Source: a bacterium | GTDB taxonomy: Bacteria > Acidobacteriota > Blastocatellia > HR10 | Reading direction: 5' to 3' | DNA length: 64,000 bases | Assembly (NCBI GenBank): GCA_041640655.1 | Contig: JBEPZV010000005.1 | Coordinates: forward strand, 1 to 64,000 | In this document: piece after piece, positions 31,981 through 39,404 of the stretch | Layout of the letters: each line of letters begins with the position of its first letter | Position numbering within the stretch: position 1 is the first letter of the stretch | Translations under genes and position numbers: made by a program | Notes under the pieces: model-generated | Told to the model about the DNA's origin: nothing | Database searches by the model: none | What the model saw: only the letters and a program-made list of their open reading frames with translations

Positions 31981-33105
31981 ATGTGGCCCTTGAAATGGAA
32001 GAAGCGAGAACAGGAATATCGTCAGCAGCGCGAGGAGTTCTTCGAGGCCGTGAAGCGACTCAACCGCCGAGAGTTCATGAAGATCGCCGGTCTGTCGGCG
32101 GCGGTCTTCACGGCGAAGCAGGTCGTTCCCCCCCATTCGTTCCAAGTCGTGGACGTCGTGCGGGCCGATCCGCAGGAGAAGCCGCTCTTCCGCTTCGCCT
32201 ACATCTCCGACACGCATCTCTATGAGCGGGAGTTGAACGAGCGCTTCGTCAACGCGGCGCTTCGGGCCGTGCGCGACGTCAATGCGCTGGATCCGCCTCC
32301 TGATTTCGTCCTCTTCGGAGGGGATCTGGCGCAGCTCGGACAACCGAAGGAGTTGGAGTTGGGGAAGCAAATCCTGAGCGAGCTGAAGGTGCCCGTGAAG
32401 ATGATGGTCGGCGAGCATGATTGGTTCCTCGATATGGGCGAGAAGTGGCGTGAGCTGTTCGGGCCCGAGAATTACTCGTTCGACCACAAGGGGGTGCACT
32501 TCATCGTCCTGATGAGCGTGAACGAGAAGGACTTCTGGACCGAGCGGAAGATGACGCCGATGGAGCGCATGCTCACGGTCGCGCAGCTCGACAATCCCAT
32601 CCAGAGTCGGTTCGAGGTGGGCGAAGAAGGGCGCGAGTGGCTGCGGCGCGATCTGGCGCGGGTCTCCAAGGACACGCCCATCATCATCTTCTCCCACTCG
32701 CCGCTCTACAAGTACTATCGCCCGTGGAACTTCTGGACCGAGGACGCCGAGGCGATTCACGAGATGCTCTTCCCCTTCAAGTCGGTGACGGTCATTCACG
32801 GCCACACGCATCAGCTGCTGACTCATCGGATTCAGAACATTCACTTCCACGGGATGCTCTCGACGGCGTGGCCGTGGCCTTACGCTCCGGAGGGCTTGCC
32901 CAAGTTGACCGTGCCCATGGAGCGGCCCGATCCCTTCGATGAGGCCGATGGGACGGGGTGGGGCACGGTGGACGTGCATCGTGATGGCTATGTGGACAAG
33001 CACTACAACCTCTGGAGCCGAAATCCGATCACGGTCGCCAAGGCATATCTGGAATCGTGGGGCAAGGAGGCCGTCCCTCCGATTCCCGAATTTCCACCGT
33101 ATTAG
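31981..33105 (+). CDS. Calcineurin-like metallophosphoesterase with Tat-type signal
   Basis: NRREFMK; DTH, GGDL, GEHD, SHSP, HGHTH. Confidence 0.9.
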   Translation: MWPLKWKKREQEYRQQREEFFEAVKRLNRREFMKIAGLSAAVFTAKQVVPPHSFQVVDVVRADPQEKPLFRFAYISDTHLYERELNERFVNAALRAVRDVNALDPPPDFVLFGGDLAQLGQPKELELGKQILSELKVPVKMMVGEHDWFLDMGEKWRELFGPENYSFDHKGVHFIVLMSVNEKDFWTERKMTPMERMLTVAQLDNPIQSRFEVGEEGREWLRRDLARVSKDTPIIIFSHSPLYKYYRPWNFWTEDAEAIHEMLFPFKSVTVIHGHTHQLLTHRIQNIHFHGMLSTAWPWPYAPEGLPKLTVPMERPDPFDEADGTGWGTVDVHRDGYVDKHYNLWSRNPITVAKAYLESWGKEAVPPIPEFPPY

Positions 33106-33118
33106 ATGGGAGGAGGCG

Positions 33119-33724
33119 ATGAGGACAGCGAAATGGTTTCTCCTGGTCGCGGGGATTCTGGGGATCGCGCTTGTCGCGACATCGTGGGATCGGTCGGCCG
33201 CCGGCGCGCAGGAGTCGAAGCCATCCGGCGGCTCCGATCGCCTCGTCGTGCAGCTCTGTGATGGCGAGACGAAATTGGAGATCGCCGATGCGCGCGCGGG
33301 CGAGGTCCTGCCGCCCGAGAAAGCGCGCGAAGTGGCGCGCCGCATGATGGCCGCCTACGCCGAACAGCAGGCCAAGCAAGTCTCCAAATGGACGGCGCGC
33401 GATCGCTTGACGTGGGAGCGCGAGCAGAAGCGCGTGATCGAGGAGGGGTACAAGCTCTTCCATGATTGGAAGGCGCTGGGGGGCACCATCGGCATCTCCT
33501 GCGATATGTGCCATCCAGATGCGGCGGCGACGCATCCGGAGACCTATCCGAAGTTCCAGACCCAGCTCAAGCGCGTGGCCACCTTGCGCGACATGATCAA
33601 CTGGTGCATCGAGAATCCCATGAAGGGGAAGCCCCTGCCGCCGGACGATCCGCGCATGATCGCGCTCGAAGCCTATATCACGAGCACGCGCAAGGGCGTG
33701 CCACTCGAGCCTGGGAAACATTGA
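33119..33724 (+). CDS. Exported monoheme cytochrome c, TsdA/SoxA-like domain
   Basis: Signal peptide; CDMCH; YPKF...LRDMINWCIENPMKG...MIALEAY. Confidence 0.85.
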   Translation: MRTAKWFLLVAGILGIALVATSWDRSAAGAQESKPSGGSDRLVVQLCDGETKLEIADARAGEVLPPEKAREVARRMMAAYAEQQAKQVSKWTARDRLTWEREQKRVIEEGYKLFHDWKALGGTIGISCDMCHPDAAATHPETYPKFQTQLKRVATLRDMINWCIENPMKGKPLPPDDPRMIALEAYITSTRKGVPLEPGKH

Positions 33725-33729
33725 CGCTC

Positions 33730-33764
33730 GAAGGGCTCGGCGCGCGCTCGCGCCGGGGCCCTTT
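33730..33764. terminator. GC-rich hairpin between convergent genes
   Basis: gaagggctcggcgcg-cgct-cgcgccggggcccttt. Confidence 0.55.
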
Positions 33765-33833
33765 CAGGCGTGTGAGCGGAATAGGGACCCGACGGGGCGC
33801 GCGCGGCCTCTGGGCTATTTGTCGGGCGGAATC

Positions 33834-33852
33834 GCCGACCGGCCCGGTCGGC
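33834..33852 (-). promoter_or_regulatory. SECIS-like hairpin for U74
   Basis: gccgaccg-ggc-cggtcggc perfect 8-bp stem starting 11 nt after UGA 33866-33864. Confidence 0.7.
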
Positions 33853-33854
33853 CT

Positions 33855-34085
33855 TCACACCCCTCAGGTCCCTCCGAAGCCGATGGTCACCCGCTCGCCT
33901 TCCACGATCACGGGCACGCTGCGCTTGCCCCCCGAATAGTGGAGCATGCGTTGGAAGGCCGACTCGTCCTTCTGCACGTTGAAGTAGTGGACGTCGTATC
34001 CGCGTTGGCCGTAGTCCTCACGGGCGGCCGTCGTATACGGTCAGGTGTCTTTGCCGAAGATGAGCACGATCTTCTTCTGCTCCAT
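33855..34085 (-). CDS. UXX-star family glutaredoxin-like selenoprotein with two Sec (U15, U74); absent from ORF track
   Basis: MEQKKIVLIFGKDT-U-PYTTAAREDYGQRGYDVHYFNVQKDESAFQRMLHYSGGKRSVPVIVEGERVTIGFGGT-U-GV*; GGAGGTGAGGAG SD; glutaredoxin VP motif continues across the UGA. Confidence 0.9.
34007..34029 (-). promoter_or_regulatory. SECIS-like hairpin for U15
   Basis: ggccg-cccgtgaggacta-cggcc starting 11 nt after UGA 34043-34041. Confidence 0.55.
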
Positions 34086-34117
34086 CACTCCTCACCTCCG
34101 CTTCCCAGGCATCTGGC

Positions 34118-37348
<3,231 letters not shown>

Positions 37349-37443
37349 AGCCCCCGTTCGCGCGAATGGAGAGTATGGCGTATTGTGGCTCGAGAGAGCA
37401 AGAGGAAGGGCGGATCCTGATCTGGGCGGTTTCCATTCCCTTA

Positions 37444-37473
37444 TTGACAAATCAGGCCGCTTTATGCTATCTA
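37444..37473 (+). promoter_or_regulatory. Putative sigma70 promoter for the MltD-like gene
   Basis: TTGACA followed by TG-c-TATCTA. Confidence 0.5.
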
Positions 37474-37541
37474 GTGGCGCTGCCATGAAGATACGGAAGC
37501 GCCGGTTGTGGTCTTTTTTTCTGCCGCGAGGGGAAGAGCAT

Positions 37542-39404
37542 ATGTTACGACGGGTCGTCAGCGGACTCATCGGGATACAGCTTGGCCTTTTTTCGAGCGT
37601 CGCGGCCTTGTCGCCGGTGAGGGGGGAGTTCGAGGCTCGCGCTGCGGCTGCGCCACAGGGGGAGCTGCGCCCGGAAGCCTCTCCGCCATCGGCTCAGGAG
37701 GCGCAGCTCCATGCCCTCATTCAGCGCGCTGAGGCTCTGTTTCGACAAGGGGAGGCGGCCTACCGCCAGGGGGATTTCGTGCGCGCGCGCGAGGCGTTCG
37801 ATCGCGCGGTGGACGTGATCTTGGAGGCGCGCGTGAACGTGTCCGCCTATCCGCAGCTCCTGGCGTACTATCGTTCGCTGATCGAGCGCATCCACGCTTA
37901 TCAATTGGAAGCCGCCATGCAGGGCGCGGAGTTCCGACAACAGTATGAGCCGTCGCTCTTGGAGGAGCTGGCCAAGATCGAGTTGGGGAGAGAAGACATC
38001 GAGGCAGGGGCGCGCGAGACGGAGGAGATCACGCTGGACTTTCCGGTGACGATCACCCCTGAAGTCCGGCAGTTCATCCACTACTTCACGCGGAACCCCA
38101 AAGGGCGGGCGACGATGGAGGTGGGCTTGCGGCGCGCCGGGCGATATCTGGAGTTGGCGCGGCGCATCTTCCAGGAGGAAGGGGTCCCGCTGGACCTGGT
38201 GTGGCTGGCTCAGGCCGAGAGCAATTGGCGCCCCCATGCCCGCTCTCCGATGAATGCGCAGGGGATTTGGCAGTTCATTCCGGGGACGGGGGCCAAGTAT
38301 GGATTGCGGCAGACCAGTTGGCTGGACGAACGTTCCGGGCTGGAGCAGCCCACGCGCGCCGCCGCCCGCTACTTGAAGTTCCTCTATGAGCGCTACTTGG
38401 ATTGGCCCCTGGCCCTGGCCGCCTATAACTGTGGGGAGGCGACCGTGGATCGAGCGATCGCCGCCTCCGGATATGCCGATTTCTGGTATCTGCACCGCAA
38501 TCGCCTGCTGCCGGCTGAGACCCGCAATTATGTTCCCATCATCTTGGCGATCATCGCGATCGCGAAGAATCCGGAGCGCTACGGCTTCACCGACATTGAG
38601 CCGGAGCCGACTCTGGAGTATGAGACCGTGCCCGTCCAAGGACCGATTGACGTGCGCTTGATCGCCGAGGCAGTAGGCACGACGCCCGAGCACATCCGTG
38701 ACCTCAATCCCGAACTCAAGCGTGGATACGTGCCGCTGGGAGAGACCTACACGGTGCGTGTGCCGGTGGGTACGGGCGAGCAGCTGATCGCCCTGCTGGA
38801 GCGTGTGCCCGTGGGGAATCGAGATTCTTGGCGCATCCACAGCGTCGCGGAAGGGGAGACGCTTCAGAGCATCGCCGAGGAACATCGCGTGAGCGCCGAA
38901 GAGATCGCGCGGGTGAACGATTTGGGGGCTGAAGCGAGGCTCCCGGCGGGCACGCGACTGATCATCCCGACGTCGGTGCGGCGCCAGCCTCTCAGGAGCG
39001 TGCCGGGCGTAGAGCTGGCGCGCCTCTCGGTCGTACGCCTGACCATCCGCGTGCGTCCGGGAGATACGATGACGCGCATCGCGGCGCGCTACGGCCTCTC
39101 GGCTCGTGATATCGCGCGCCTCAACGGCCTGAGCCCGCGAGCGAAATTGCGCGCTGGTCAAACGCTGGTCATCGCCGTGCCCTCGGAGCGAGTGAAACGA
39201 TCGAACGTGTCCAGGACGTCTTCTCGAACCAAGAGTCTCGCTCCCGCGCGCGGACGTCGCTTTACATATCGCGTGCGTCCTGGGGATACGCTCCTGGAGA
39301 TCGCCAATCGGTATGAGGTGACAGTCGCTGATCTTCGTCGGTGGAACCGCCTCTCGGGCGACCTCATCAAACCCGGACAGATCTTGGTGATCTATCGGCA
39401 GTGA
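37542..39404 (+). CDS. Membrane-bound lytic murein transglycosylase D-like (SLT + LysM repeats)
   Basis: [23 protein letters not shown]; three LysM-like repeats (GETL, PGDTM, PGDTL). Confidence 0.93.

Follow-up and report, generated by a model that had tools for sequence, protein, structure and literature searches.

The window analysed here, a 64,000-nt stretch of contig JBEPZV010000005.1 (assembly GCA_041640655.1; Acidobacteriota, Blastocatellia), carries on its minus strand, directly behind carB, a small frame that opens with ATG at 34085 and runs for 76 codons when TGA is read as selenocysteine (Sec). The frame was read directly from the sequence, and its match to the family model NF041114 (E = 9e-35) means that it is not a chance frame. 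The parts of the locus are the following:

33855..34085, minus strand: coding sequence of a UXX-star family 1 selenoprotein, 76 codons plus stop, with predicted Sec at codons 15 and 74
34095..34099, minus strand: Shine-Dalgarno-like GGAGG, 9 nt upstream of the ATG, from the sequence
34041..34043, minus strand: UGA codon 15, predicted Sec of the redox motif U-P-Y-T, in the context K-D-T-U-P-Y-T
34007..34029, minus strand: proposed SECIS 1, inside the coding region, from the RNAfold MFE structure and a conserved motif
33864..33866, minus strand: UGA codon 74, predicted Sec, three residues from the C-terminus, in the context G-G-T-U-G-V
33855..33857, minus strand: true stop UGA, 9 nt on from where the Sec-74 codon begins, that codon being followed by GGG GTG TGA (G-V-stop)
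33834..33852, minus strand: SECIS 2, wholly in the 3' UTR, from the RNAfold MFE structure and a positional hairpin in relatives
34118..37570, minus strand: carB, the upstream neighbour (NF003671), given as context and not part of the element

An earlier note on this DNA had described a strong Shine-Dalgarno sequence before ATG 34085 and in-frame UGAs at codon 15 (T-U-P-Y-T) and codon 74, the latter followed by G-V-UGA. All of this is found in the minus-strand sequence, with GGAGG at 34099-34095 separated by a 9-nt spacer from the start codon.

The identity of the upstream gene is clear (NF003671, 1728.8 bits against a cut-off of 599). Its stop lies at 34120-34118, which leaves 32 nt between that stop and ATG 34085. 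Within the 1150-codon open frame 34118-37570 (minus strand), the carB profile match sets in only at residue 75, so the real start probably lies ~220 nt further downstream than 37570; a divergent MltD/LysM-like gene at 37290-39404 (plus strand; 209.1 bits, cut-off 508) is overlapped by the long frame. On the other side, a convergent ORF at 32939-33724 (plus strand) has a weak match to the c-type cytochrome SoxA (46.2 bits, cut-off 110). The ends of the two convergent genes are separated by a GC-rich palindrome at 33725-33800, which folds on the plus strand into a long hairpin that directly succeeds the stop at 33724 and leads into a short U-run, and on the minus strand has a shuffle z of -2.14 over its 76-nt window; it may act as a bidirectional terminator.

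Profile searches place the protein in the UXX-star selenoprotein family 1, the assignment that the earlier note had made. Residues 7-76 align to positions 1-70 of the 70-position equivalog model NF041114 with 118.7 bits (cut-off 72), and the parent model NF041212 (96.7 bits, cut-off 66) and the Pfam Glutaredoxin profile PF00462 (38.5, cut-off 22.9) are also exceeded. The six-frame search of the genome recovered the family gene once, with 104.3 bits and 2 in-frame TGA codons. The locus and the family have in common the U-P-Y-T motif, the Sec codon three residues from the end, the protein size, the glutaredoxin fold and the pair of TGA codons, and the locus differs from the family in no essential respect, the place directly after carB being the one feature particular to this genome (1 of 30 loci). 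Judged by its profile scores, the gene is therefore a regular representative of a family already catalogued, and the two-Sec architecture is likewise catalogued and not new. A 2026 review (PMC13188914), in its available text, lists the family as 'Distant Grx-like protein 1' with a UxxT motif and 2 Sec, crediting Zhang & Gladyshev 2008, and cites Haft & Tolstoy 2025 (mSystems) for the UXX-star families; the part of the 2008 paper available (PMC2398784) lists a 'Grx-like' UxxC family, with no mention there of the two-Sec form. The same review text agrees with the earlier note that the function is unknown, and raises metals or unknown substrates as possible binding partners of the Sec residues in the UXX-star family (PMC13188914).

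The related UXX-star families 2 and 3 and the HUGP/GUXX-star fusion (NF041211, NF047338 and NF045501, under the parent NF041212) also have a glutaredoxin-like domain that ends in Sec or Cys plus two residues, and because the domain ends in this way, their SECIS must sit past the stop, as it does here. The protein scores under the cut-offs of all three models (54.2 vs 100, 50.2 vs 97 and 56.5 vs 325, respectively), and family 2 appears in the table of the review as having one Sec and the motif GxGU (PMC13188914, available text). An identity as a classical glutaredoxin 3 or NrdH equivalog was rejected, with TIGR02181 at 36.8 (cut-off 90), TIGR02194 at 16.6 (cut-off 85.75) and a motif UPYT instead of CPYC; in the profile search of this protein, all glutaredoxin and NrdH equivalog models remained far under their cut-offs.

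The AlphaFold2 model, built from a 28-row alignment, has a pLDDT of 89.1 and a pTM of 0.78, and comprises beta1 (6-11), alpha1 (16-27), beta2 (31-36), alpha2 (41-51), beta3 (59-62) and beta4 (65-68), followed by an unstructured tail (69-76), with the last block showing the lowest confidence (pLDDT 79). In a Foldseek search, the closest solved folds were glutaredoxins and NrdH-redoxins (3ic4, 7c10/7c12 and 1h75; TM 0.69-0.73), and 3ic4 is also the best solved match by sequence (E = 2.2e-4). Classical dithiol glutaredoxins and NrdH-redoxins (PF00462; 3ic4, 7c10, 1h75) thus share with this protein the fold, the placement of the active site where helix 1 begins, and a V-P motif with the cis-Pro; however, here the resolving Cys is replaced by Thr, the C-terminal helix is missing and an extra C-terminal Sec tail is present.

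Recoding of two UGA codons presupposes a Sec machinery, which the earlier note had assumed the organism to possess and had proposed to search for as selA, selB, selC and selD. The assembly (3.13 Mb in 128 contigs, 89.8% complete) contains every component above its cut-off: a tRNA-Sec with 75.2 bits against a gathering score of 47, which ARAGORN also calls as tRNA-SeC with anticodon tca, selA (586.5 bits), selB (372.1 bits) and selD (365.4 bits). The selD match contains one in-frame TGA inside it (G000 contig C2:48263-49189, L018), so the selenophosphate synthetase is probably itself a selenoprotein. Selenium insertion at UGA-15 and UGA-74 is a prediction, and the comparison with relatives bears on each site separately.

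The distribution of the family was assessed in a sample of 401 genomes of the phylum, including this one, by counting the matches above the NF041114 cut-off. Such a match occurs in 58 of the 401 genomes, with 2 in-frame TGA in 49 of the 58 rows and 1 TGA in the other 9. Within the same class, the 37 other sampled genomes all lack a match above the cut-off (the best reaching 60.3 bits), as against 57 of 363 in the rest of the phylum, and this patchy distribution may point to horizontal acquisition. Thirty of the 58 loci (L025-L054, with L035 being the present one) were inspected closely. The C-terminal site is TGA in all 30, and the stop follows after two sense codons. Of the same loci, 21 have TGA at the first site and 9 have a Cys codon there (TGT/TGC); as true stop, 22 use TGA, 7 TAG and 1 TAA. 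Leaving aside L034 and L040, which come from genomes flagged as unpublished, the C-terminal TGA is found in 28/28, the first site is TGA in 19 and Cys in 9, and the stops are distributed 21/6/1. In the 28-row alignment, Val-76 and the G-G preceding the Sec are invariant; past the true stop, the translated sequence of the family loci is not conserved as protein.

Below the cut-off, L057 and L058 (from G149 and G271, both of this genome's class) end in G-R-G-C plus two residues and a stop, so that a Cys/Sec pair at the C-terminal site also exists in the wider superfamily. Another below-cut-off glutaredoxin-like relative, L059 (G221), ends in G-R-G-U plus three residues and TGA. From their sequences, these three are probably the Cys and Sec forms of a sister UXX-star family. 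A further locus, L060 (G100:C26:16950-17360), matches only the C-terminal 42 profile positions and has a disrupted N-terminal part with extra TGA codons; it may be a decayed or frameshifted member. The earlier note had named, as grounds against its reading, a genome without selABCD and homologues without Cys or UGA at both positions; what was found is a genome with the machinery and relatives that keep TGA or Cys at both sites.

These observations bear on the simplest alternative, a decayed glutaredoxin pseudogene in which the in-frame TGAs are inactivating mutations. Ordinary ORF lists do split the frame into pieces, as a pseudogene would have it, but in 49 of the phylum's 58 matches above the cut-off, two in-frame TGA codons stand at the same two positions, the profile match is full-length without a frameshift, the genome has a complete Sec machinery, and population variants, described below, fall on third codon positions. 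We give this alternative practically no credence.

With both UGAs read as Sec, each would have its own RNA element. According to the earlier note, each internal UGA is followed by a hairpin that begins exactly 11 nt downstream, and the RNAfold MFE structures agree, with both hairpins starting at nt 15 as counted from the U of the UGA. That the second lies beyond the true stop is equally correct (33852-33834, against a stop at 33857-33855); since only two sense codons follow Sec-74, the hairpin falls past the stop. It has an 8-bp stem and a GGC loop, and its start is 11 nt from UGA-74 and 2 nt from the stop, downstream of both. The two elements fared differently in the SECIS-type folding that the note had proposed: hairpin 2 is more stable than shuffled sequences (-27.9 kcal/mol for its window, z -2.67, with 3 of 200 shuffles folding as well), whereas hairpin 1 is not (-17.2 kcal/mol for the 59-nt window, z -0.57, 51 of 200 shuffles). 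A bacterial SECIS model quoted in the available text of the review (PMC13188914) specifies a loop of 3-9 nt, an upper stem of 4-16 bp, a G in the first two loop positions and a UGA-to-loop distance of 16-37 nt. Hairpin 2 fits this model with its 8-bp stem and a GGC loop at nt 23, 19 nt after UGA-74. An Rfam scan of 33600-34300 with E up to 10 returned zero matches.

The MAFFT alignment of the 3' regions left the hairpins out of register, and hairpins were searched sequence by sequence. A contiguous hairpin of at least 5 bp starting 9-14 nt after the UGA was found in 27 of the 30 loci, the exceptions being L037, with a 4-bp stem only, and two loci in which the hairpin starts earlier, at 5 and 7 nt. 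The SECIS 2 loop starts at nt 19-26 in 29/30 and contains a G in all 30, and the stem sequences differ widely among loci. In a positional test that demanded an energy of at most -8 kcal/mol, a start at nt 13-18 and a loop that begins at nt 19-26 and contains a G, 26 of the 30 loci passed (25/28 without the unpublished genomes), compared with 63 of 2175 other TGA trinucleotides in the same loci, a contrast that is descriptive and not a probability, the criteria having been set after seeing the data and the loci being related. The loci that failed were L034, L037, L049 and L051. Across the 30 SECIS 2 windows, the shuffle z averages -1.32 and falls below -2 in 9, a modest signal, as expected in GC-rich sequence. 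The element would thus be a stable hairpin just past the stop, ~20 nt after UGA-74, that recruits SelB.

A hairpin right after the end of a gene is also a common position for a terminator, and the gene is the last on its strand before the convergent gene ending at 33724. Both facts would suit a reading in which only UGA-15 is recoded and translation ends at UGA-74 with a 73-residue protein, so that hairpin 2 is a terminator or an RNA-stability element and not a SECIS. Against this, all 30 loci retain a TGA that is separated from the stop by exactly two sense codons, with an invariant Val in the last position, related families have Cys at that site followed by two residues and a stop (L057, L058), the distance of hairpin 2 from UGA-74 is constrained among loci, and the hairpin is not followed by a T-run, with no minus-strand terminator-like site found in 33500-34500. 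We regard the 73-residue product as very improbable, and take hairpin 2 as the SECIS of UGA-74 in what follows.

A precedent for this arrangement comes from recombinant thioredoxin reductase: in the available text of PMC10778597, a bacterial SECIS positioned within the 3' UTR is functional in E. coli for proteins whose Sec is C-terminal. As here, a Sec near the C-terminus is combined with a SelB-directing hairpin past the stop, but that construct is engineered, whereas the present gene is natural, its stop is also a UGA and it has a second, internal Sec (PMC10778597, available text).

SECIS 1 is of a different kind. Its hairpin starts at nt 15 from the U of UGA-15, corresponding to an 11-nt spacer, in the RNAfold MFE structure, and at this locus consists of a 5-bp lower stem separated by an internal loop from an apical mini-helix CC/GG that closes the tetraloop GUGA (nt 21-28). 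The loop is G-led and begins at nt 23, 19 nt after UGA-15; the shared apical helix amounts to 2 bp only. Folding energies do not set Sec-forms apart from Cys-forms (mean z -0.43, n = 21, and -0.31, n = 9, respectively), and thermodynamic stability was dropped as evidence for hairpin 1. RNAalifold run on hairpin 1 yielded only a 2-bp consensus helix, with zero compensatory changes. The sequence of the motif, in contrast to its stability, does separate the two forms. A G at nt 23 is present in 21/21 Sec-forms, and for the Arg codon, 18 of these 21 use CGT and 3 use CGG, compared with 2 of the 9 Cys-forms that use CGT. The full motif of CC + GNRA + GG at nt 21-28, with the 12-mers read by eye, occurs in 18/21 Sec-forms (16/19 without the unpublished loci) and in 0/9 Cys-forms. 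The Cys-forms act as a natural control, implying that the synonymous sites are constrained only where a UGA must be recoded. We take GUGA and GGGA to be GNRA tetraloops, and the G-led loop presumably parallels the loop bases G23/U24 of the E. coli fdhF SECIS. SECIS 1 is thereby a candidate, a small conserved motif whose status rests on conserved sequence and position. In this capacity, a small sequence-conserved hairpin embedded in the A-A-R-E-D codons, ~20 nt past UGA-15, would recruit SelB.

The earlier note had also pointed out that the second element must tell apart two UGAs that lie three codons apart. The puzzle is real: at this locus, the apical loop of hairpin 2 begins 19 nt after UGA-74, a distance that shrinks to 10 nt when counted from the stop UGA. 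Among the relatives, 22 have a TGA stop, and in these the loop start varies between nt 19 and nt 25, which puts it at 15-21 nt from the Sec codon and at 6-12 nt from the stop; the latter distance is under the 16-nt lower bound of the bacterial SECIS model. The known bacterial spacing rule (16-37 nt) would then answer why the stop UGA is not recoded: with the stop UGA in the A site, the loop would be ~10 nt away and the hairpin at or inside the mRNA entry channel of the ribosome, so that recoding would fail. Stop usage is not unusual, with TGA in 22/30 family loci (73%) and in 1018 of 1299 long ORFs of this genome (78%), the latter taken from a crude set of stop-to-stop, non-overlapping frames of at least 300 codons, and hence there is no sign that a UGA stop is avoided or preferred.

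Partial read-through of UGA-77, as Sec or otherwise, would give a longer product, and it has in its favour that the same codon is recoded only 9 nt earlier and that the frame, if the TGA is read through, continues open over 25 codons or more. Yet 8 of the 30 relatives have TAG or TAA at this place, the residues beyond are not conserved, and the loop, ~10 nt away, falls short of the 16-37 nt that the bacterial SECIS model sets (PMC13188914, available text). Such read-through appears extremely improbable to us, even more so than the 73-residue product, and termination at UGA-77 is the reading retained.

The earlier note had further suggested that the gene may be co-transcribed with carB, 32 nt upstream. 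This is plausible, given the short gap, the absence of any promoter-like or minus-strand terminator-like site found in 33500-34500 and an RNA-library contig that bridges the junction; the linkage itself is not conserved, as carB adjoins the family gene in 1/30 loci, this genome only. No neighbour common to the family was found within the ~1.5 kb flanks of the 30 loci. The largest cluster of neighbouring stop-to-stop ORFs (23 loci) was rejected as antisense low-complexity frames by eye, and the next one shrank to 5 closely related Cys-form loci by tblastn.

The metatranscriptome X20 (public runs) holds a third of the sampled words. Its contigs from a ~97%-identical relative cover 33906-34382 (13 differences in 477) and 33673-33927 (6 in 255), and thus bridge the carB junction and span the 3' end of the gene with hairpin 2, although these contigs may stem from carried-over DNA and establish neither transcription nor its strand or the transcript ends, nor does a contig over two genes establish a single transcript. 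Four differences lie inside the gene across the RNA-run contigs, one on the contig of the ~97% relative and three on a more divergent contig, and each of the four affects the third position of its codon; the TGA codons and both hairpins are free of listed differences. Record 17 of X20, from a more divergent strain, contains the last 73 nt of the gene (33855-33927) with 7 differences and diverges completely right after the stop; this divergence past 33855 implies that the 3' element differs between strains.

Taken as a whole, the locus is very probably best explained as a UXX-star family 1 gene in which two UGAs are translated as Sec, each with its own RNA element, and the stop UGA is spared by its position. 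What the protein does with its two Sec residues is a matter of proposal. Sec-15, in a U-P-Y-T motif that has Thr where the resolving Cys would usually stand, and Sec-74, carried by the flexible C-terminal tail, could form a diselenide redox pair, and thereby a split active site; in the Cys-15 forms, a selenenylsulfide would take the place of the diselenide. Thioredoxin reductase, with its mobile C-terminal Sec tail, is comparable in principle. Because Sec is found in 30/30 loci at the C-terminal site while site 15 tolerates Cys, we propose that the C-terminal Sec is the indispensable partner. A more far-reaching version, in which an intramolecular diselenide between Sec residues 59 positions apart makes the protein a very low-potential 'split-site' redox carrier or a soft-metal binder, and the UGAs are discriminated purely by hairpin spacing, is offered tentatively, and we consider it rather unlikely.

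In practical terms, the finding corrects the genome annotation, given that ordinary gene finders would miss or shorten this small redox selenoprotein. The family represents a natural case of a bacterial SECIS located wholly within the 3' UTR, and with its Sec-UGA and stop-UGA at a distance of only 9 nt it might be used as a small reporter system for the way in which SelB spacing determines recoding specificity; neither point is new. If discrimination by spacing is true, the family would offer a minimal system, given by nature, in which to test the distance rule for bacterial SECIS elements.
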